This document shows, piece by piece, positions 1-10,380 of a stretch of 64,000 nt of DNA. Positions within the stretch are counted from its first letter, which is position 1; every line of letters starts with the position of its first letter. The notes below the pieces were generated by a model. The model was not told where the DNA came from, did not search any database, and saw nothing but the letters and a program-made list of their open reading frames with translations. Both the position numbers and the translations under genes were made by a program. Source of the stretch: a virus (Duplodnaviria > Caudoviricetes). Location: the IMG/VR virus record IMGVR_UViG_3300025141_000018; one strand, written 5' to 3'.

Positions 1-564
1 AGTGATTTTGATGATGTACGTTATTGGCATAATAGCGGAGCCGATGTAAGGATTACACCAACAACAGCAGGCTCAACCACAACGGCCGGAACAACATGGG
101 CTGGTATTGTATCAAAAATAGGCACTTATTATTGGACCATCGACGGAGCCAATTATACCGGAACAGGTGGAACAATATATGGTCTTAATTTTTGCAACTT
201 AACAACTGATTATAAACTATCATTTGTTAGTGGAGCATCATCGGGTTATAGCGGATATTCAGGATATTCCGGGTATAGTGGATATAGCGGATATTCAGGA
301 TACAGTGGATATAGCGGTAGCGGATATTCAGGATACAGTGGTTACTCTGCTGATAGGGTAAAAATATATGTCAAATTAATAGATAACGAATTATATTTTA
401 AAGTACAATATATAAGTTCCATGGGAGCTCCGATAGACGGAACCCAATCAATACAATGGCAATGTCGTGCAGGAGCAGACATAGCAAGCCGTGGTATTAA
501 ACATCATACAACAAAGCCAAGTTATAGTATTATAAATACCATGACAAGTTCCGACGATTCGTAA
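1..564 (+). CDS. 5'-truncated putative virion structural/tail-fibre-associated protein with (GYS)n repeat
   Basis: Frame 1 is open from base 1 to TAA 562-564 (absent from the ORF track because it has no start): SDFDDVRYWHNSGADVRITPTTAGSTTTAGTTWAGIVSKIG...LTTDYKLSFVSGASS(GYS)8GS(GYS)3ADRVKIYVK...DDS*. It is Gly/Thr/Ser-rich and resembles large-phage structural proteins from recall. Confidence 0.7.
   Translation, partial: SDFDDVRYWHNSGADVRITPTTAGSTTTAGTTWAGIVSKIGTYYWTIDGANYTGTGGTIYGLNFCNLTTDYKLSFVSGASSGYSGYSGYSGYSGYSGYSGYSGYSGSGYSGYSGYSADRVKIYVKLIDNELYFKVQYISSMGAPIDGTQSIQWQCRAGADIASRGIKHHTTKPSYSIINTMTSSDDS
244..348 (+). repeat. Coding tandem repeat, 11 x Gly-Tyr-Ser (9-bp unit, synonymous variation) with one GS interruption
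   Basis: ggt tat agc / gga tat tca / gga tat tcc / ggg tat agt ... ggt tac tct; codons vary while the peptide is conserved. Confidence 0.95.
531..538 (+). promoter_or_regulatory. Candidate T4-like late promoter TATAAATA at the head of the cluster
   Basis: Exact TATAAATA about 36 nt upstream of ATG 574, with aagga SD at 566-570. Chance matches are frequent in AT-rich DNA. Confidence 0.45.
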
Positions 565-573
565 AAAGGAAAT

Positions 574-927
574 ATGGATGAAAGATTACAAAAAGCATTA
601 GACTTCACAAACTACAGATTAGTGCTAGAAAATCAAAAAAATAACCTTAAACTTGCTTCAGATCAAAATCTCCATGTCATACATTCAGGACAAAAAATTA
701 AAATAACGCACTCACTTATTAGTTTTCTTGGTACATTAAAACAAGAAAAACAAAAGGAAACTACACTTATTGATGCCTATGATAATCCTGTAAAAATTGA
801 CAATATAGATGAGTTATTAAAATCATGTATTGAAAAATATAACTCAACAATGAATGACTGGAATATACAATTTAGTAAGATTAAAAAAGCAAGAAATATG
901 GAAAAATTATTAGATGCCTCAAAATAA
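574..927 (+). CDS. Hypothetical protein (conserved-looking phage protein preceding a GT pair)
   Basis: 117 aa ORF with SD; overlaps next gene; no catalytic motif recognised. Confidence 0.7.
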   Translation: MDERLQKALDFTNYRLVLENQKNNLKLASDQNLHVIHSGQKIKITHSLISFLGTLKQEKQKETTLIDAYDNPVKIDNIDELLKSCIEKYNSTMNDWNIQFSKIKKARNMEKLLDASK

Positions 928-1822
928 TGGATTATGTGCCTTTGCATATAATAATGATGAAATCAACTATGTTGAAATGGCATATATTTGTGCATTACAC
1001 GCAAAAGCATATTTAAAAAATAATAACTTTTGTTTAATTACTGACGAGGGTTCCCTCTCGTATATGAAACAATTATACAAGCCTAAAATATTAGAAAAAG
1101 TTATCGACGTTGTAATGGTAACAGAAAATCCCCTTGAAGATATGGGGGAAAATAAAAATATACGGAATCATTTTGATAGTCCGTGGACTGAATTTAGAGC
1201 CCCATTTATTAATAGCAATAAACACGAAGTGTATCAAATTACTCCGTATGATAAAACTATTTTAATAGATTTAGATTACCTTGTGATGTCAAACATGTTA
1301 GATAGTTATTTTGAAATGAATTCGCCAATAGGTATGTTTGTTAATGCAAAAAACATTCGTGGAAATAACCCATTATGGAAAGAAATATGGTTACATAATG
1401 CAGGTATAAAAATGAAATGGTCGACTGTTATTGCATTTGATAAAAGTGACGAGGCAAAAATATTTTTTGATATGTGGGAATATGTTAAGGATAATTATAA
1501 TTACTTTAAATTTTTATATAACTTTCCACAAGGACTATACAGGACTGATTATTGTGTAAGTATTGCTTCGCATATTATGTCTGATTCAAAAGAATCAGAC
1601 TGGTATAATTTTAACGAAAGAATGTACTTTAGTGATCAGAAAGATGAGATATATGATTTTAATGACGGGATATATAGCATTATGGCTAATGATCAAAAAG
1701 AAAACTGGAAAGACATTCCAGTGACATGGAGAGATGTAGATATTCATATGATGAATAAACGATCAATTAGTAGAATAGCACCTAAGGTAATAGAATATTA
1801 TGAAAAAGAGCTCAACTTATAA
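914..1822 (+). CDS. GT-A fold glycosyltransferase-like protein (GT8/nucleotide-diphospho-sugar transferase-like)
   Basis: DxD-type motif TPYDKTILIDLDYLV, FCLITD, late D motif YRTDYCVSIA. Confidence 0.6.
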   Translation: MPQNNGLCAFAYNNDEINYVEMAYICALHAKAYLKNNNFCLITDEGSLSYMKQLYKPKILEKVIDVVMVTENPLEDMGENKNIRNHFDSPWTEFRAPFINSNKHEVYQITPYDKTILIDLDYLVMSNMLDSYFEMNSPIGMFVNAKNIRGNNPLWKEIWLHNAGIKMKWSTVIAFDKSDEAKIFFDMWEYVKDNYNYFKFLYNFPQGLYRTDYCVSIASHIMSDSKESDWYNFNERMYFSDQKDEIYDFNDGIYSIMANDQKENWKDIPVTWRDVDIHMMNKRSISRIAPKVIEYYEKELNL

Positions 1823-2663
1823 AAAATGGAAGATAACGCCAATAGAAGCAGACTTTGGTATTACATTGTTATTAGATAAAAATAGTGATCCAGTACAAAA
1901 AGACTGTTTGTTTGTATGTGTTAAAAGTATTAAAAAATCATATCCTGATGTTCCTATTGCAGTAATAACAGATCAAAAGTTAAACATGAAAGAAATTGAT
2001 TATCTTATTCCGCAGGAAATTGCTATTGATAGTTATTGGACTGATAAGAAAATTAATCTTTGCACTTTGTATTGGCTAACCCCATTTAAAGTTACGTTAT
2101 TTCTTGATAATGATTTTATAATAACCGACAATCAAAATTTTAATCAGTACTATATTGAATTAATTAAAACAATAACTTTTCCGCAAACTGTTTTAAGTTT
2201 TAGAGGATACAAGTTACCATATAATCATAGAGTACTAGAAGAAAACAATATTCAAACTATTCTTCCTCATACTTTTGCATTTAAAAGAGATGACGAAACT
2301 ACGTTAGAGTTTTTTAATTTATGGTATCAAGTTTGTCAATATTGGCAATCATTTTTTCCATATGTTAACAAGACTATTAAATTTAAAAACTTTGATTCAA
2401 CAATAGCATTATCATTGACTGCTCATATATTGGGCATAACTAAAGAAATTAAAAGTAATGTATACACATATGTACATATGAATCCGTTCTTAGAAAGAAC
2501 ATTTCCTGGAATTAGAAATCCAGCATGGTCATCCTTCTTAAAAATATGGCCTTCTGACGATGGAATAGCAATAGAAAATTATAAAGTAAATAAGTTACTA
2601 CATTACAAAGATAAAAAAGTTATCTCAATATATAAGAAGCAATTACATGAGTGGTTACGTTGA
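1800..2663 (+). CDS. GT-A fold glycosyltransferase-like protein, paralog of 914..1822
   Basis: IAVITD, LYWLTPFKVTLFLDNDF, FDSTIALSLTAHILG parallel the upstream gene. Confidence 0.6.
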   Translation: MKKSSTYKKWKITPIEADFGITLLLDKNSDPVQKDCLFVCVKSIKKSYPDVPIAVITDQKLNMKEIDYLIPQEIAIDSYWTDKKINLCTLYWLTPFKVTLFLDNDFIITDNQNFNQYYIELIKTITFPQTVLSFRGYKLPYNHRVLEENNIQTILPHTFAFKRDDETTLEFFNLWYQVCQYWQSFFPYVNKTIKFKNFDSTIALSLTAHILGITKEIKSNVYTYVHMNPFLERTFPGIRNPAWSSFLKIWPSDDGIAIENYKVNKLLHYKDKKVISIYKKQLHEWLR

Positions 2664-3642
2664 AACAGTTGACAGGAATCATAAATTGTGGGTTTATAGT
2701 AACAAATATACTGGTGCGGTTTTAGAGTTTAGACATAGACCAAGCGAAACGTATGATACAGAAAATATACGTGAAACATTGCACCAAACAGAAGACGTTA
2801 AAGGATACTTAGAAGAAGATGTTAATTATAATAAACTTCAAGTACACTATAATCCCGACATTCGTGATTACGATATAAAACTTAAAGATAATAAAATTAA
2901 CATTCGTGTTGATGAACAATCCTTATTTCAAGTTCCTGAATTTGAGTGGGATAATACGTATGGCGACATTAATGTAATCATTGATAAAGATAATGATGTT
3001 TTATATTTCAAAGTAGGACAACAAATATATGACGAATTACTAAACTTAGAATTAAGTAATCAAGTTAATATTACAACTAATCAAAACGTTTTAGAATTTT
3101 GGATTACAAAGAAGAACCAGCCACACATTTTGTTAGATACTTTAAAATTAAACACAAAACAATTTTTAGCAGATGGACAATATACATTTGATATTTCTGA
3201 TATTAAAACTCACGTAAATTATAATGAACTAAGTATTTTTACACAACGTCTTTTCTCAGATTATAAGATGTTTTATAAAAACCAATTTTCAGCAATACTT
3301 GAAAACCAAGAAAAATTTCATACAATTCAAGTAGCAATGCATGAAAAATATTCAGACTTAGCAATTTGGCAAGAACAAGTAGAACTAGATTATAAAACTA
3401 ACACATATTCAAAACGTTATGCTTGTATGTCGTCTATTAAAAACTTTGCAAAGTACGATATTTTAGATGACTATATACAATTATATTGTGTAAACAAAAA
3501 CAATACAAACGATTTAATCGACGTTATACGAATACCTATATTAGAAATAAAAAACGAACGAGTATATAACTTTTGGATTAATACAAATGAAGAAGTAAAC
3601 TTTCTTCATAATCACCAAAAAATCTTAATGGGCATACAATGA
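2647..3642 (+). CDS. Hypothetical protein with an internally duplicated beta-rich segment
   Basis: FWITKKNQPHILLDTLKL resembles LYCVNKNNTNDLIDVIRI; coupled to both neighbours. Confidence 0.6.
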   Translation: MSGYVETVDRNHKLWVYSNKYTGAVLEFRHRPSETYDTENIRETLHQTEDVKGYLEEDVNYNKLQVHYNPDIRDYDIKLKDNKINIRVDEQSLFQVPEFEWDNTYGDINVIIDKDNDVLYFKVGQQIYDELLNLELSNQVNITTNQNVLEFWITKKNQPHILLDTLKLNTKQFLADGQYTFDISDIKTHVNYNELSIFTQRLFSDYKMFYKNQFSAILENQEKFHTIQVAMHEKYSDLAIWQEQVELDYKTNTYSKRYACMSSIKNFAKYDILDDYIQLYCVNKNNTNDLIDVIRIPILEIKNERVYNFWINTNEEVNFLHNHQKILMGIQ

Positions 3643-4610
3643 GAATACCAATTACAGAATACGATGTTGTATTCATTAGTTATGATGAGCCTAATGCTGA
3701 TGATAATTATGCAGATTTACTTAATAAAATTCCATGGGCTAAACGTTCGCACGGAATATGGGGAAGCGATGCCGCACATAAGGCGGCCGCGGAAATAGCC
3801 GAAACTGATAGATTTATTGGTATTGATGCTGATAATATTATTGATCCTGAATTTTTAAATATCGAATTAGATGATACAAAAATTGATATGTCTGTTGATG
3901 TTATTAGCTGGAGTGCTAAAAATCAAGTAAACGGTTTAGTATATGGCAATGGAGGAATTAAATGTTGGCCTAAAGCCGTAGTTGAAAACATGATGACACA
4001 TGAGAATTCCAATTCTAAAGAAGGACAAGTAGACTTTTGTTGGGACATACATTATGTGCAAATGAATAATATTTATAGTACAATTTTTAATAATGCAACT
4101 CCATATCAAGCATATAGAGCAGGCTTTCGCGAAGGTTGTAAGATGAGTTTAGATATGGGAGATGTTGTACCTGCAGACCAATTTAAAGCACGAGTACACT
4201 ATAAAAATTATAAACGATTATTAGTATGGATGTCTGTTGGTGCAGATACATTAAATGGTTGGTGGTGTATGTATGGTGCTCGCTTAGGATGTTGGATGAC
4301 AAACTTTGAACGAGATAATTGGAATTGGGTTGATGTACGTGATTTTGAATGGCATACACGTTACTGGAAAGAGAATATTGCTCCACAATTTGAAAGTGAA
4401 GTAAATGCTGGGGTAACCTGTACTTATACAGGTTGGACATATGACTTTGATAAATTAATATCTGAGACATGTAGAATAGGCGAAGATTTAAGATCAGAAT
4501 TAAACTTAGAAATTGCCGATCTTGATGATTTAGGTAGTAAATTCTTTAAAGAAACTTACACAAATCCGCCACGAACCGCTCCATTAATTAGAGAGGATCA
4601 AATAATATGA
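3639..4610 (+). CDS. GT2-like (GT-A) glycosyltransferase
   Basis: DVVFISYDEPNAD, HKAAA, FIGIDADNII (DxD), YGNGGIKCW, AYRAGFREGCK; paralog of 28380..29096. Confidence 0.65.
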   Translation: MRIPITEYDVVFISYDEPNADDNYADLLNKIPWAKRSHGIWGSDAAHKAAAEIAETDRFIGIDADNIIDPEFLNIELDDTKIDMSVDVISWSAKNQVNGLVYGNGGIKCWPKAVVENMMTHENSNSKEGQVDFCWDIHYVQMNNIYSTIFNNATPYQAYRAGFREGCKMSLDMGDVVPADQFKARVHYKNYKRLLVWMSVGADTLNGWWCMYGARLGCWMTNFERDNWNWVDVRDFEWHTRYWKENIAPQFESEVNAGVTCTYTGWTYDFDKLISETCRIGEDLRSELNLEIADLDDLGSKFFKETYTNPPRTAPLIREDQII

Positions 4611-4663
4611 GTATATTAAATGAAAATTGGGAAATATGAGTATATTAAATGAAAATTGGGAAA
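4604..4663 (+). repeat. 29-bp tandem duplication spanning a stop/start junction
   Basis: aatatgagtatattaaatgaaaattgggaaa occurs at 4604-4634 and 4633-4663 (period 29). Confidence 0.95.
4607..4639 (+). other. 10-codon mini-ORF MSILNENWEI* created by the duplication
   Basis: ATG 4607 overlaps upstream TGA 4608-4610; its own TGA 4637-4639 overlaps ATG 4636. Confidence 0.5.
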
Positions 4664-6144
4664 AAAGAGGTAATTATATAGTTCATTCGTCGCATAATTT
4701 TGAATTAATGAAAAACAAACAAGACGAAATAGGTCCTGGGTTTTGTATAGCAAAGTGGAATCAAGTTTCGTTACATTTAGAAACAGGATTAACACATAGT
4801 TGTCATCATCCAACAGCTCATGAAATACCGTTAGCAGAATTAGAAAAAAATCCTTCTGCATTACACAATACAGAGTTTAAAAAACAACAAAGAAAACTCA
4901 TGCTTGAAGGTAATAGGCCTAAAGAATGCGATTATTGTTGGCGTATTGAAGATCAAAATCAGTATAGCGATCGGCAAATGAAAACTATCGAGCCTTGGGC
5001 ATTAAAAGATTTTGATGAAATAAGTTTAATGACCGGTGATGAAAATGTTCCTCCAAAATATTTAGAAGTTAGTTTTACTAATGCATGTAATCAAAAATGT
5101 ATATATTGTGGGCCTGAATTTAGTACGGCTTGGATAGAAGAATTGAAGGAACACGGACCAGTAGTAGTTCTAAAAGAATATAATAACTATAAACGTATAG
5201 AGCAAGGATGGCAAAATTTAGATGATCTTTATTATAAAAAAAATCAAACCAATCCTTATATAGATGCATTTTGGAAATGGTTTCCAGAAATTTATGATAA
5301 ATTAGAAATATACAGAATAACAGGAGGCGAACCTTTATTAAGCAAAGATACTTTTAAAAGTATGGAGTTTTTTTTAAAAAATCCCAATCCTAATTTAGCA
5401 TTAGCAATTAATAGTAACCTTAGTGTACCTGAAAAAGTATGGTCAAAATTTATAAATTTATGTAAAAATCTCATTACTTCAAAAGCAATAAGTAAATTAA
5501 CAATATTTACAAGTATAGAAAGTTGGGGCGAACAAGCAAATTATGCTAGATATGGTTTAGATTTTGATGTTTATAGACAACGTATAGAAGAAATTGCAAA
5601 TATAAATGATTTAAGATGTGTTTTTATGTCTACTTATAATATTTTGAGTGTACCTTCTTTTTATAAAATATTAGAATGGCAATTAGAGCTAAAGAAAAAA
5701 TACAATACAATAAATTTAGATAAAGAAAAACCATCACATTCTTGGTTGATGGGTATAGATATTCCGTACCTTAGACATCCTCAATATTTAGATGTAGGTA
5801 TTCTCACAGATGATATAAAAGAAAAATATATGTTACCTTGTTTAGATTTCATGAAAAACAATATTTCGTCAGACCATACTGGATTTGAAGAATACGAAAT
5901 GATTAAGTTTCAACGTATTATCGAATCATTTGATGTTCCTAAAAACAATAAAACAAAATTAAGTATACGTAGAGCAAAATTTTATGATGTAATAAATGAA
6001 ATGGACAAAAGACGAGGTACAAATTTTTTAAAGACTTTTCCTGAATTAAAAGAATTTTATTTTGAATGTGAAAAAAATAGGAATATGATAAAATATGCAG
6101 TAAATGTAGTAGTTGATAGAGAAGCATATGAGTACGGTCCATAA
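4636..6144 (+). CDS. Radical SAM protein with N-terminal twitch-like domain
   Basis: CNQKCIYC motif, ITGGEP, N-terminal FC..KW...SCHH...CDYC; start placed at the second duplicated ATG. Confidence 0.9.
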   Translation: MSILNENWEKRGNYIVHSSHNFELMKNKQDEIGPGFCIAKWNQVSLHLETGLTHSCHHPTAHEIPLAELEKNPSALHNTEFKKQQRKLMLEGNRPKECDYCWRIEDQNQYSDRQMKTIEPWALKDFDEISLMTGDENVPPKYLEVSFTNACNQKCIYCGPEFSTAWIEELKEHGPVVVLKEYNNYKRIEQGWQNLDDLYYKKNQTNPYIDAFWKWFPEIYDKLEIYRITGGEPLLSKDTFKSMEFFLKNPNPNLALAINSNLSVPEKVWSKFINLCKNLITSKAISKLTIFTSIESWGEQANYARYGLDFDVYRQRIEEIANINDLRCVFMSTYNILSVPSFYKILEWQLELKKKYNTINLDKEKPSHSWLMGIDIPYLRHPQYLDVGILTDDIKEKYMLPCLDFMKNNISSDHTGFEEYEMIKFQRIIESFDVPKNNKTKLSIRRAKFYDVINEMDKRRGTNFLKTFPELKEFYFECEKNRNMIKYAVNVVVDREAYEYGP

Positions 6145-7603
6145 AGCATTTTTAGAGCCTACTGTTAACTATATTAAACGAGTTCTCAATTCAAAAAGTA
6201 AATCATTTTGCGGAGCAAAATGGTATAATGCAACTATATGGTTAGGACAAGGAGTTAATTCTAGTTGTCATCATCCGCCTCCGCATCCTATAGACCAAAA
6301 TGAGATTAAAACTAATTATAAAGCAATTCATAATACAAAATATAAAAAATTAGTTCGTAAACAAATGTTAGAAGGAATCCGGCCTTCTGAATGCGAATAT
6401 TGTTGGAAAATAGAAGATAATAATATTAATAATATAAGTGATAGATTTCATAAAAGTGTAGTATATACAGAAAAAGAATTGCGAGATATTACTAAATTCA
6501 AATGGAATGAAGATGTAGATTTATTAACATTGGAAATTGCATTTGATAATAATTGTAATTTTGCATGTAGTTATTGTAATCCTACGTGCTCCGCTACATG
6601 GAGTAAAGATATAAGAACACATGGTGCATATAATAGTTTACAAGGAGCAGATGATGTCGGTTTAACATTTGCTCAAACCGGAGAATGGGCGTTACCATAT
6701 GGATCAAAAAATGAGAATAATCCTTATGTAGAAGCATTTTGGAAATGGTGGGGTGCCGATTTATGTATTACATTAAAAGAATTGCGGGTAACTGGTGGTG
6801 AACCAACTGTTAGTAATAATTTTTGGAAATTACTAGATTGGTGGAAAGAGCATAAAGAATGCCAAGTAATATTAGCAATTAATTCTAATTTGGGTTTTAA
6901 ATTTGAAATATGCGATAAATTAGTTAAAGCTAGCCATTATATAAACACATGTCATATTTACACAAGTAACGAAAGTTATGGCAAACATGCAGAATATATT
7001 AGAGATGGATTAGTTTGGGACCAATGGACTGATAATTTAAATATTATAGCAAAACATAGTAGAATAAAATTAATACATATAATGTTTACGGTTAATGCAT
7101 TGTGTTTAGCAAGCATTACAAAATTAATAGAATATATTTTTACTTTTCAAGAAACATATAAAGATATTAAAATAGATATGAGTTTTAATATCTTGCGGTG
7201 GCCTAGTTTTCAAAGTATTACAACATTACCTAAATATTTGGTTGAACAAAAAATTAAAGAATTGGAAGAATTTATAGAACATAATAGTCAGCCACCATAT
7301 TTTAAGGAAGGTTTAAAAAGTCATCAAGTAGATAGATTAATTACTTTAATAAATTATTTAAAAAACGAAGTTGAAGGATTTGATGGTGCAACCGATTTAA
7401 CCAAAAGACAACAAAATTTTAAAGCATTTTATACTCAATACGATCAACGCAGAAATAAATCTTTTATTGATACATTTGCTGATTGGCCGGAATTAGTTGA
7501 ATGGTATAATTCTTTAGATTATAAATTTGTACCTCAAGAACGAACTAGCGGTGTTCAACCTAAAAATGATCATTATAAAAGAGTGTTAGATGATAAAATA
7601 TGA
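6128..7603 (+). CDS. Radical SAM protein with N-terminal twitch-like domain, tandem paralog of 4636..6144
   Basis: CNFACSYC, VTGGEP, FCGAKW...SCHH...CEYC, shared NPY.EAFWKW. Confidence 0.9.
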   Translation: MSTVHKAFLEPTVNYIKRVLNSKSKSFCGAKWYNATIWLGQGVNSSCHHPPPHPIDQNEIKTNYKAIHNTKYKKLVRKQMLEGIRPSECEYCWKIEDNNINNISDRFHKSVVYTEKELRDITKFKWNEDVDLLTLEIAFDNNCNFACSYCNPTCSATWSKDIRTHGAYNSLQGADDVGLTFAQTGEWALPYGSKNENNPYVEAFWKWWGADLCITLKELRVTGGEPTVSNNFWKLLDWWKEHKECQVILAINSNLGFKFEICDKLVKASHYINTCHIYTSNESYGKHAEYIRDGLVWDQWTDNLNIIAKHSRIKLIHIMFTVNALCLASITKLIEYIFTFQETYKDIKIDMSFNILRWPSFQSITTLPKYLVEQKIKELEEFIEHNSQPPYFKEGLKSHQVDRLITLINYLKNEVEGFDGATDLTKRQQNFKAFYTQYDQRRNKSFIDTFADWPELVEWYNSLDYKFVPQERTSGVQPKNDHYKRVLDDKI

Positions 7604-8747
7604 AGATATTAAAAAAATTCACGTTGAATTAAGTTCAAAATGTAATGCTAATTGCCCTGGATGTCCTCGAAATGTTCAAGGAGGATATGAGCTCCCCTCA
7701 TTAAAAAAAGCAGAATTAAGTATAGATGATTTTAAAAAACTTTTTTTAAAAGATTTTTTAAAACAAATAGATTCGATTTTATTTTGCGGTAATTATGGCG
7801 ATCCTATTACTTGCAACGACATTATTCCTATATTAACTTATATTAAATCATGTAGTGACGCAAATATAAGAATTCATACTAATGGTAGTCTTAGAACACC
7901 CGAATTTTGGAAAAACATTGCAACTATTCTTTCGCCATCTGATACGATTATATGGAGTATAGATGGATTAAGCGACACGAATCATTTATATAGACGAGGT
8001 ACTGATTGGAATAAAATTATAGATAATGCAACTTCATTTATAGAAGCAGGAGGTATCGCAACTTGGGAATATTTAATTTTTAAGCATAACGAGCATCAAA
8101 TAAACGAAGCACGTGAATTATCAAAAAAATTAGGATTTCAATATTTCGCTCCTAAAAAAGCATTTGGGTTCGAATCAGACAATTATGCAGTTAAAGCAAT
8201 GCAAGTTGTTAATAAAAATGGTGATCATGATTATTTTATACATCCCCCCAGTGAGAAAAATAGAAATATAGATGTTTTAAAAGCAAAGCAAAATAAAAAC
8301 GAAAAACTATATCCTCATTCCTATAATCGTAATAAATTTATTGAAGATTATAATATAAAGTGTAAAGAATTAAATAAACTAGTTTCAGAAGGTTATTTTG
8401 ATTATTTAGATGATGTAGAAGTAAGTTGTAGTACCATAAACAATTCTGAGATATTTATAGATAGTTTCGGAGGAGTTCATCCGTGTTGTTACTTAGGACA
8501 TGTATCACAAGAAGCCGATTCACATGTAGAAATTCAATATGCTAATTTTATAAATATGCTAGGAACATCGTATAATTTTAATGGTATTACACATGGTGTT
8601 CGTTATATAGTAGAAAATTCATATTTTAATCTAATAAAAGAAACTTGGTCAAAGACTCATAGAAATGGCCGAATAGCACAATGCTCTAGAATGTGTTCAA
8701 AAAACGATAACATTATAGATAGTTTATATAATAAAGAAAATGCATAA
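7590..8747 (+). CDS. Radical SAM protein with C-terminal SPASM/twitch-like cysteines
   Basis: HVELSSKCNANCPGC, FCGNYGDP, C-terminal SC...HPCC...QCSRMC; paralog of 34454..35530. Confidence 0.9.
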   Translation: MIKYEDIKKIHVELSSKCNANCPGCPRNVQGGYELPSLKKAELSIDDFKKLFLKDFLKQIDSILFCGNYGDPITCNDIIPILTYIKSCSDANIRIHTNGSLRTPEFWKNIATILSPSDTIIWSIDGLSDTNHLYRRGTDWNKIIDNATSFIEAGGIATWEYLIFKHNEHQINEARELSKKLGFQYFAPKKAFGFESDNYAVKAMQVVNKNGDHDYFIHPPSEKNRNIDVLKAKQNKNEKLYPHSYNRNKFIEDYNIKCKELNKLVSEGYFDYLDDVEVSCSTINNSEIFIDSFGGVHPCCYLGHVSQEADSHVEIQYANFINMLGTSYNFNGITHGVRYIVENSYFNLIKETWSKTHRNGRIAQCSRMCSKNDNIIDSLYNKENA

Positions 8748-10380
8748 TTATAATTTTGTTTTTGAAAAAGACGATGTTGGTAATTTTTTAAAAAATAATC
8801 CTTTTGTTTTTAGCGTAGAAAATAACCAGGTTAATTACATAAAAAGAGCAACTGAGGTATTTTTTTATAAAATTAATTATGGAGCATATAGAAATCATAA
8901 AAATTACAATACTATTAAAAATATTACTCACCATCATATAAATTTTAATATAACAGATTTAGAAGATTTACCAGAAAAAGATTATTGTTATTATTATATA
9001 TCTTTTAATGTAATGTATGGTATGTTTCTACCACAAGGCTATGCTTCTAATAAAAGTAATGTAGAAAAAACAAGTAAAGAAGAAATTTTATCAACTTTGG
9101 AGAATAATTGTAAGTTTATTCTTCCAGATAAAATTAAAAAATTATTAGATAAAGATAAATGTAAAATTATTTTAGATACTTCCAAAGAAGGGGTCGGACA
9201 TATCTTACAATGGGATAAATTTTTTAAACTTACAAATTTAACACCTAATCAAGTTATACATACAACTGGAGATGTTTTATTAGGAAGTAACATTAGTATT
9301 CCGACTACATTTTATAATCAATGGGAAAGAAGCGTTGCAACATTATCATTTTCAAGACACCAGGAAGTAATACATAAATTAAAAGAATTAATATTAACTA
9401 AAGAGAAACGAAAATGGTATGGTTTATGTCTAAACAGAGTTACAAAACCCCACAGAATAGAAATTTGTAAATTTGCTGCCGAAAATTTACCAAATAAAAT
9501 AGATTATAGTTTTGGTTTGTTTAGTTGGAATACTTCGTTTGAACGAGATAAACAAACCGACAAGCCGTTAGATACCGCATTGTTTCAAGAATGGAAATAT
9601 CGTATAGCCAATGATACTGCTAGTTATTTTGCAACTCCAGCCGATGTTAAAGAATATTTTACATGGTTATCTGAACACGACGAAAAATCCAGTGATTTAG
9701 AACCCAACATACCATTTAGTCGTAATATGGTAACTTTTTTTAATCATAATTCATATTATAATTCTTATTTTAGTATTGTATGTGAAACATTTTATGAACA
9801 ACAAGGTGCCTTGTTTGTATCTGAAAAAATTTTTAAACCTATAGCATATTTACAACCATTTATTGTAATTGGCCAAGCATATGTTATAGAATATATGAGG
9901 CATTTAGGGTATGATGTATTTGATGATATAATAGATCATTCATATGATAAAATAGTAAATCCTAGACATAGAATGGATAAAATAAAAGAAGAATTAATTA
10001 GACTATGTCGTATATCATTAGACCAATGGTCTGATATTTTACATCATATATTTCCTAGATTATATAGCAATTATCATCATTTAAATTTAGCATTTTATAG
10101 AGATGATAAATTTCATATGCCTGTTCATGTAAATGAACCAAAATATTACGAACCAATACATTCTTTTGAAACAAAAGAAAAGTATAGAAAATTATCTAGT
10201 TTGCTTAATTCTAAAGTAGAACTATCTAACTCATTTTATTCGTCGTTGTATTCTAATATGGAATATGCCAATTCGACAGCCAGGACATACACTAATGAAA
10301 TATATAATTATCTTTCATTAAATAAAAACATAACTAATTCTTATTATAATAAAAACTATAATTATGATAGAACAACATAA
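8740..10380 (+). CDS. GT10 (fucosyltransferase)-like GT-B protein, copy 1 of 4
   Basis: LCLNR..KPHR, SIVCETF, FVSEKIFKPI...PFIVIG, GYDVFDDIIDHSYD; recalls the GT10 YxTEK...PIxxG motif. Confidence 0.5.
   Translation: MHNYNFVFEKDDVGNFLKNNPFVFSVENNQVNYIKRATEVFFYKINYGAYRNHKNYNTIKNITHHHINFNITDLEDLPEKDYCYYYISFNVMYGMFLPQGYASNKSNVEKTSKEEILSTLENNCKFILPDKIKKLLDKDKCKIILDTSKEGVGHILQWDKFFKLTNLTPNQVIHTTGDVLLGSNISIPTTFYNQWERSVATLSFSRHQEVIHKLKELILTKEKRKWYGLCLNRVTKPHRIEICKFAAENLPNKIDYSFGLFSWNTSFERDKQTDKPLDTALFQEWKYRIANDTASYFATPADVKEYFTWLSEHDEKSSDLEPNIPFSRNMVTFFNHNSYYNSYFSIVCETFYEQQGALFVSEKIFKPIAYLQPFIVIGQAYVIEYMRHLGYDVFDDIIDHSYDKIVNPRHRMDKIKEELIRLCRISLDQWSDILHHIFPRLYSNYHHLNLAFYRDDKFHMPVHVNEPKYYEPIHSFETKEKYRKLSSLLNSKVELSNSFYSSLYSNMEYANSTARTYTNEIYNYLSLNKNITNSYYNKNYNYDRTT

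Follow-up and report, generated by a model that had tools for sequence, protein, structure and literature searches.

A Predicted Flexible, Tyrosine-Rich Repeat Loop in a Fibre-Module Protein Family of Large Phages and the Enzyme Module Encoded Behind It

Introduction

What does a phage protein gain from a run of tandem Gly-Tyr-Ser (GYS) units, and do the enzymes encoded behind it act on that run? The question is posed by a 64,000-nt stretch of viral DNA, IMG/VR record IMGVR_UViG_3300025141_000018 (hereafter, the window), which opens within the gene for a putative virion protein bearing such a repeat. Downstream of this gene lies one nearly uninterrupted plus-strand block of enzyme genes, a 62-kb island. 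An initial annotation interpreted the repeat as a dense array of Tyr and Ser acceptors for the glycosyltransferases (GTs) and sulfotransferases of the island, or as a substrate for its radical S-adenosylmethionine (SAM) enzymes resembling those of ribosomally synthesized and post-translationally modified peptides (RiPPs). The analysis presented here gives good support to a descriptive account in which an ancestral Gly-x-Tyr loop on a fibre-module protein, flexible and rich in tyrosine, has been expanded repeatedly. As to function, we infer, with a probability of roughly 0.4, an unmodified, flexible, fast-evolving, tyrosine-studded contact loop on a fibre-associated virion protein, probably adhesive.

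Results and Discussion

A tandem repeat maintained at the peptide level

The open reading frame at the start of the window is open at the left edge and ends at a TAA codon (562-564). The whole gene was read from a metagenome contig (ENA ERZ27249081 k141_979151, 84.8 kb; locus L001) on which the neighbouring gene is identical to that of the window. It encodes 357 amino acids (aa) from a GTG start (P0002; L001:8918-9991), with residue 1 of the window corresponding to residue 171 of the whole protein. The 11 GYS units with varied codons reported by the initial annotation were confirmed (Table 1), and a Ser-Ser pair (238-243) directly precedes the array. The array draws on all six codons for Ser, three for Gly, and both for Tyr; such mixing indicates that the peptide has been kept and the DNA has not. 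The earlier proposal that selection acts on the peptide is thus borne out by diversified codons encoding a strictly G/Y/S sequence. Tandem Repeats Finder returned only imperfect periods of 9, 27, and 36 nt (75-89% match), from which the array appears to be old at the unit level, and there are signs of block duplication of 27-36 nt within it.

A loop site shared across a large family

The initial annotation also described the tract as an insert within an otherwise non-repetitive domain. Its location inside a single domain held up, the tract lying between two strands of one β-sandwich; its status as a private insert did not, as homologues share the site. Every full-length homologue at 24-30% identity carries a G/Y/S tract at the same alignment position. 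A profile built from the N-terminal 250 residues of P0002, with the repeat left out, matched 1,994 representative clusters at E <= 1e-3 and 1,070 at E <= 1e-10, and the family accordingly comprises at least 1,994 representative clusters. Among the best 157 profile matches, a Tyr-rich tract occupies the loop position in roughly half, as judged by eye, and 29 pass a strict G/Y/S threshold; the units seen at the site in this set are GYS, GYG, SYS, AYS, AYAYAYVY, GEYGNEY, NGYNGY, and AYNSYN. In the 80 IMG/VR loci of one subfamily, the usual tract is (YG)4-10 with period 2, often as two runs flanking a conserved middle segment, and members of about 300 aa possess only a short loop of the type G-x-G-A-Y-x-x-x-Y. 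Conserved Cys-Pro motifs (for example, HYCPPS and SCPG) stand between the two Tyr runs, in some expanded loops, of the family proteins of L030, L031, L040, L065, and L089.

Alignment of 52 diverse members, including repeat-less ones, left just four invariant columns, among them Tyr285 (Y285), the last tyrosine of the array. The Ser of the tract is often replaced by Gly, Ala, Asn, or Glu in orthologues, and Tyr alone is conserved, which runs counter to the earlier suggestion that Ser hydroxyls serve as acceptors. From these alignments, the conserved element is a tyrosine between small residues; neither Ser nor the triplet period is conserved. The expanded tracts of many lineages invariably place Tyr at every second or third residue between small residues, with the type and number of units depending on lineage. 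Close relatives differ by single in-frame units; where flanks are 93-99% identical, the difference between relatives is one GY unit. Within the lineage of the window, one contig from a marine run (X17) differs by +9/-6 nt, in frame, inside the array, a tentative observation at a depth below 5. In this variant, TATTCCGGG is inserted after position 282 and 6 nt are missing at 315-323, for a net gain of one codon in frame. In several runs, contigs break in or beside the GYS array.

The family N-terminal domain was also found inside longer proteins of 700-2,600 aa, at either end (P0116, P0152, P0216, P0248, P0252, P0256). On this distribution, the domain exists both as a protein in its own right and as a mobile module within large fibre proteins.

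Searches outside the family returned little. P0002 had no match in Pfam, PHROGs, or NCBIfam, and matches to the family in the ESM Atlas were limited to viral hypothetical clusters. Neither megablast of window positions 1-8000 nor tblastn of P0002, P0014, and P0143 matched any cultured phage; only P0010 reached the PA5oct group. In IMG/VR, an exact-word scan with the window sequence found nothing, and a related-locus search with P0002 alone found no relative. A literature search on GYS or YG repeats yielded no phage paper. The tract marks a very large family (~2,000 representative clusters) that Pfam, PHROG, and NCBIfam models do not cover and for which no solved relative was found.

Predicted structure of the loop

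An AlphaFold2 model built with the 52-sequence alignment reached a mean predicted local distance difference test score (pLDDT) of 87.3 and a predicted template-modelling score of 0.85, with pLDDT below 50 only at residues 1-9 and 254-285. A model from a shallow alignment agrees in that the repeat is the low-confidence part. The predicted architecture consists of a helical N-terminal half and a β-sandwich (about 122-357), and the tract falls between confidently predicted strands of this sandwich (242-246 and 289-297). In repeat-less orthologues, the same strands are bridged by a loop of only a few residues. The tract is therefore predicted to be a flexible loop of the C-terminal β-sandwich.

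Structural comparison did not assign the fold to a characterized family. Foldseek searches of the PDB with either model returned nothing at E <= 1e-3, and searches of BFVD and AFDB retrieved only relatives that lack characterization. VIA-align gave generic jelly-roll or galectin-like β-sandwich neighbours only (best Z 6.5-7.4).

A proposed contact loop

We propose that a short, ancestral Gly-x-Tyr loop was expanded in tandem in this lineage to give the GYS tract. The loop is situated in the C-terminal β-sandwich of a family that has a helical N-terminal domain. Left unmodified, the tract would form a solvent-exposed, tyrosine-studded "sticky" loop that touches the host surface or another part of the virion, and the gain or loss of units would tune its reach and avidity. 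The Tyr/Ser/Gly-rich binding loops of antibodies offer a likeness. If the loop is an adhesion device, it would represent a new kind of host-contact element whose reach is altered by single repeat units.

Several considerations weigh against this proposal. Exposure of the loop is deduced solely from its low pLDDT and its length variation, and its position at a receptor-binding face is hypothetical. The β-sandwich neighbours are generic, so homology lends no support to the term adhesin. The composition of the tract could stem in part from slippage of a G-x-Y seed and not from selection for binding. Finally, a modification model accounts just as well for the invariant Tyr and for the glycogenin-like enzymes encoded strictly next to the protein.

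A fixed position in the fibre module

Upstream of the tract gene are genes for a 3,592-aa protein, a 208-aa protein (phrog_11259), and a 358-aa fibre-like protein (P0003). P0003 matches phrog_14394 ("virion structural protein"), and its counterparts in related loci show faint Peptidase_G2 matches. The gene order of the family (giant protein, ~200-aa protein, fibre with a C-terminal chaperone-like domain, then the Tyr-loop protein) is the same in the marine relatives L001, L010, L013, and L014 and in the Pseudomonas jumbo phage PA5oct. Judged by gene order, the family is consistently located at one position within the fibre module of large T4-like and jumbo myophages, and this conserved position among fibre and baseplate genes agrees with the structural role first assigned to the tract-bearing protein. 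The records of PA5oct gp357-gp360 are annotated with electrospray ionization tandem mass spectrometry, a method applied to PA5oct virions (PMC7318152); gp360 is a distant relative, not the window's own protein. The same position is held in marine and soil jumbo myophages, with a seven-gene module behind it (PA5oct excepted).

Enzyme genes follow the protein family, not the repeat

The co-occurrence comparison proposed with the initial annotation drew on 136 related IMG/VR loci, taken with 10-kb flanks (80 belong to a subfamily with the repeat and 56 to one that lacks it), together with further contigs encoding family proteins. Flanks were searched with the window proteins and with profiles of three module families (both GT8-like families and that of the 323-aa protein). 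Loci were scored for these families where at least 6 kb of downstream sequence was present and for the radical SAM pair where at least 9 kb was present; the counts cover related sequences and do not represent independent events. Both GT-like families and the 323-aa family were encoded in 55/55 repeat-bearing and 35/35 repeat-less loci, and the radical SAM pair in 50/52 and 25/29, respectively. A non-redundant set of 43 repeat-bearing and 24 repeat-less loci gave the same picture for the GT-like pair (43/43 and 24/24), the 323-aa gene (43/43 and 24/24), the 117-aa gene (42/43 and 23/24), and the radical SAM genes (41/43 and 21/24). The 331-aa gene, present in 41/43 repeat-bearing and 12/24 repeat-less loci, is the sole module gene that differs by repeat state, a difference confounded with clade.

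The module does not covary with the repeat, and its equal presence in both sets indicates a link with either the protein family or the fibre locus. The claim that the gene is tightly linked to the enzyme genes was upheld, with the two GT8-like paralogues lying within 2.7 kb and kept in 90/90 loci that have at least 6 kb of flank; the narrower claim that the repeat is a specific acceptor array for the GTs fails on the same counts. As read from these loci, the protein family has anciently been accompanied by the first seven island genes, whether its members carry the repeat or lack it. The sulfotransferase-like and SGNH-like genes of the island had no homologue within the 10-kb flanks of these loci. 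Sulfotransferases that are absent there do not explain a widespread tract, and the proposal that they act on the repeat is not sustained. The GT10-like genes and the UDP-glucose dehydrogenase had one to three homologues each in the same flanks, and wide recurrence in the rest of the island was limited to other radical SAM paralogues and one 238-aa gene. Given an enzyme linkage to the family instead of the repeat, attention shifts away from the GYS array with the sulfotransferases and towards the protein and its conserved Tyr, taken together with the genes at 574-7603.

Alternative explanations

The alternative that survives best assigns the module a direct role. The GT8-like enzymes (914-2663) and the 323-aa enzyme would O-glycosylate Y285 and the tandem copies of this loop tyrosine, the serines, or both, the radical SAM enzymes would tailor the sugar, and the repeat would multiply the acceptors. 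Consistent with this account, the seven-gene module stands behind the family gene wherever the flank of a locus is long enough, Tyr is the conserved tract residue and Y285 is invariant, and PA5oct gp360 lacks module and Tyr loop alike. The profile of the 287-aa family matches glycogenin-1, a GT8 enzyme that glucosylates its own Tyr195 (PMC9188544), and the 302-aa gene is a paralogue of the 287-aa gene. In glycogenin, a GT8-type GT-A enzyme, a tyrosine hydroxyl in a flexible loop primes the glycan (PMC9188544); the enzyme is itself the acceptor there, whereas in the window putative enzyme and acceptor are separate proteins. Phage-encoded glycosylation of virions also has a precedent in mycobacteriophages (Freeman 2023, PMC10527164, as cited in PMC12619734). 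We nonetheless regard the account as doubtful. The module is equally present beside repeat-less orthologues, so it does not need the array, and the orthologue in the Ralstonia jumbo phage RsoM2USA has the module and no loop Tyr. The glycogenin match is weak (E 1e-4) and confined to the N-terminal half, and most GT8 enzymes transfer sugar to sugar. In 71/86 distinct relatives, the module has a sigma70-like promoter of its own, which sets it apart from the late structural genes as a separate transcription unit, probably an earlier one, and the authors of a pelagimyophage study take such GT genes to be modifiers of host lipopolysaccharide (PMC7029224). In a more specific version, which we consider decidedly unlikely, the invariant loop Tyr would accept a glycogenin-like, protein-primed glycan built by the GT8-like pair and the 323-aa enzyme and tailored by the radical SAM enzymes, with multiplication of the primer Tyr to at least 11 sites producing a proteoglycan-like fibre protein. 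If correct, it would be the first case of a virion glycan that is phage-encoded and O-linked to Tyr.

Replication slippage offers an explanation with no function at all. A G-x-Y seed would change loop length by slippage and be tolerated as long as the fold is spared. Variation in unit number between close relatives and within the population accords with this idea, as do the higher-order periodicity of 27-36 nt in the window's array and the equally wide distribution of repeat-less orthologues. We judge it unlikely as a full account: the codons of the array are diversified and the peptide is still strictly G/Y/S, lineages with different units are all Tyr-dense and avoid charged or large aliphatic residues, and tracts persist across distances of 25% identity.

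Resilin and plant glycine-rich proteins are Gly/Tyr-rich extracellular structural proteins, and proteins of this kind use Tyr for weak multivalent contacts or dityrosine cross-links. By a similar route, the [G/S]Y[G/S] tract could form labile cross-β, Tyr-zipper, or dityrosine links between subunits or fibres, which would then be stiffened or bundled. The period-2 (GY)n tracts of orthologues have the pattern of a β-strand with one all-Tyr face, and GYGYGYG and SYSYSYS peptides have been modelled to assemble into fibrillar polar-zipper architectures (PMC8163036). The low-complexity domains of the FUS family match the tract in composition and Tyr spacing, and that of FUS self-associates through cross-β cores (10.1101/2021.08.05.455316). 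These domains are long, free, disordered, and cellular, whereas the tract of the window is short, tethered at both ends, and located on a virion protein. Orthologues switch between periods 2 and 3, a pattern that speaks against a single fixed secondary structure; the tract has no predicted ordered structure, and short-loop orthologues do without such an element. Self-association is, in our estimate, quite improbable.

Cross-linking or other modification of the tract tyrosines by the radical SAM enzymes, the RiPP-like reading of the initial annotation, appears very improbable. Nearly all repeat-bearing loci conserve two radical SAM genes at 4-7 kb downstream of the tract, but the pair is also found in 25/29 repeat-less ones. 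Its family, NF033640 (N_Twi_rSAM), is function-unassigned and not a peptide maturase family, and matches to maturases were stray and below threshold. No recognition-element domain was seen in the radical SAM pair. Moreover, the Y-S-G unit puts Gly two places after the aromatic ring and offers no β-carbon for a cross-link. Known three-residue cyclophane cross-links use the β-carbon, which Gly lacks.

A collagen-like triple helix of the Gly-X-Y tract in a trimer, also raised initially, is scarcely credible and was rejected: a GS unit interrupts the register; the site holds period-2 (GY)n, AYAY, GEY, NGY, or no repeat in orthologues; neither P0001 nor P0002 matches the Collagen family PF01391 at E up to 0.01; and a parallel triple-helical rod cannot be formed by a loop that starts and ends on adjacent strands of one domain. 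GYS triplets as such are compatible with phage collagen-like stalks, in that other phage fibre proteins with Peptidase_S74 contain unbroken G-[YF]-S arrays of up to 240 residues that are annotated PF01391.

Comparison with known systems

These collagen-like (G-Y/F-S)n stalks of phage tail fibres (PF01391 with Peptidase_S74, PF13884) share with the window a tandem GYS repeat in a fibre-module protein. In those examined, the stalks run for 36-240 residues, unbroken and linear between domains, upstream of the S74 chaperone; the tract of the window is a 35-residue loop of broken register within a globular domain, with non-triplet orthologues. In the two contexts checked, neither GT nor radical SAM genes lay within 10 kb of collagen-type GYS arrays in unrelated fibre proteins. 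A populous class of phage fibres carries unbroken GYS-GYS-GxS arrays of period 9 (P0009, P0011, P0012, P0016, P0019, P0024, P0052), often together with Peptidase_S74, CBM_5_12, or DUF2793. Tyr or Phe at every X position is unusual for collagen-like sequences.

A parallel in genomic position is provided by the T2/T6/S16-type gp38 adhesins, for which Dunne et al. reportedly described, in Structure in 2018, glycine-rich motifs and hypervariable segments that set receptor choice. Like the Tyr-loop protein, gp38 is small, encoded after the fibre gene, and equipped with Gly-rich low-complexity segments and fast-evolving variable loops. Unlike it, gp38 forms polyglycine-II helices without Tyr periodicity, and profile and structure searches found no sequence or fold similarity between the two. 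For the Tyr-loop protein, a receptor-binding role would be conjectural.

Two cultured jumbo phages encode relatives. PA5oct gp360 (YP_010678854) is a homologue of the family domain (tblastn E 1e-5), and RsoM2USA_355 (AVH85283) is a family homologue by its conserved motifs. In both phages, as in the window, the gene comes after one for a giant structural protein and one for a fibre whose C-terminus is chaperone-like; unlike the window, both proteins lack the Tyr repeat and the conserved loop Tyr. The module further separates the two. RsoM2USA has 117-aa-like, two GT8-like, 323-aa-like, and N-twitch radical SAM genes, and PA5oct, unlike the window, has no enzyme module. RsoM2USA_355 also departs from the window in that its family domain is fused to a fibre-type N-terminus. 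gp360, RsoM2USA_355, and the RsoM2USA module genes are annotated as hypothetical only. Within the 344-kb genome of RsoM2USA, the orthologue and module genes lie at 4130-10356 of the retrieved locus (L096). As a cultured phage of Ralstonia solanacearum with both protein and module, RsoM2USA makes the question testable at the bench.

Genes and promoters of the downstream module

The features of the tract gene and of the seven genes behind it are collected in Table 1.

Table 1. Positions of the tract, its gene, and the downstream module in the window
Feature	Position	Strand	Remarks
Tyr-loop virion-module protein, 3' part (C-terminal 187 of 357 aa)	1..564	+	gene start 510 nt upstream of window
(GYS)8-GS-(GYS)3 array	244..348	+	11 GYS units and one GS unit without Tyr; predicted flexible loop
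Codon of Tyr285, last Tyr of array	343..345	+	one of four invariant columns among 52 diverse family members, including repeat-less ones
TATAAATA, T4-type late-promoter-like motif	531..538	+	36 nt before start of 117-aa gene
117-aa protein, first module gene	574..927	+	weak match to phage tail C-terminal domain DUF6558_C, E 0.005
302-aa GT-A enzyme (putative)	914..1822	+	paralogue of 287-aa gene (hhalign probability 97.5%, E 5.7e-12)
287-aa GT8-like enzyme (putative)	1800..2663	+	family profile matches glycogenin-1 in PDB, E 1.4e-4, residues 3-112 only
331-aa protein	2647..3642	+	few invariant residues; apparent internal duplication, by eye
323-aa protein, best conserved module gene	3639..4610	+	mean column identity 76%
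Radical SAM enzyme, NCBIfam NF033640 (N_Twi_rSAM)	4627..6144	+	316 bits vs cut-off 170
Second N_Twi_rSAM radical SAM enzyme	6113..7603	+	289 bits

Family assignment within the module was sparse. Single members of the GT-like families did not match Pfam PF01501, and PDB searches with the 302-aa and 323-aa family profiles gave no meaningful match. Member-by-member Pfam scans of the three module families gave noise and a single Glycos_transf_2 match (E 0.07), to a member of the 323-aa family, which is possibly GT2-like on this basis. The 323-aa protein remains ~60% identical in loci where the Tyr-loop protein is only ~25% identical. It has many invariant Asp, His, Arg, and Trp residues, as a strongly constrained putative enzyme without family assignment, and is 42% identical to RsoM2USA_350; RsoM2USA_348 resembles a shorter paralogue. 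The 331-aa protein is probably not an enzyme, as gauged from its conservation pattern. Its two halves each contain a motif of the type LY-hydrophobic-x-K-N-D-P-N-x-L, with almost no invariant polar residues.

The sigma70-like promoter mentioned above (TTGAC[AT]-N16-19-TAnnnT) was counted in distinct relatives before the 117-aa gene, against a background of 1.6% of random 120-nt windows. The site lies ~40-60 nt upstream of the 117-aa homologues (L014-L094, L097-L152), often with ATAAATA embedded. In the lineage of the window, the -35 box has been lost and a full TATAAATA stands in its place, which suggests that the timing of the module switched from early to late in this lineage. RNA from the region amounts to one 225-nt metatranscriptome contig that covers 778-1002 only; the contig is no proof of transcription, and the repeat lies outside it. 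Across the whole window, TATAAATA occurs 9 times against 27 expected from shuffles, and 100/100 shuffles contained at least 9 copies, a depletion that fits selection against stray late promoters.

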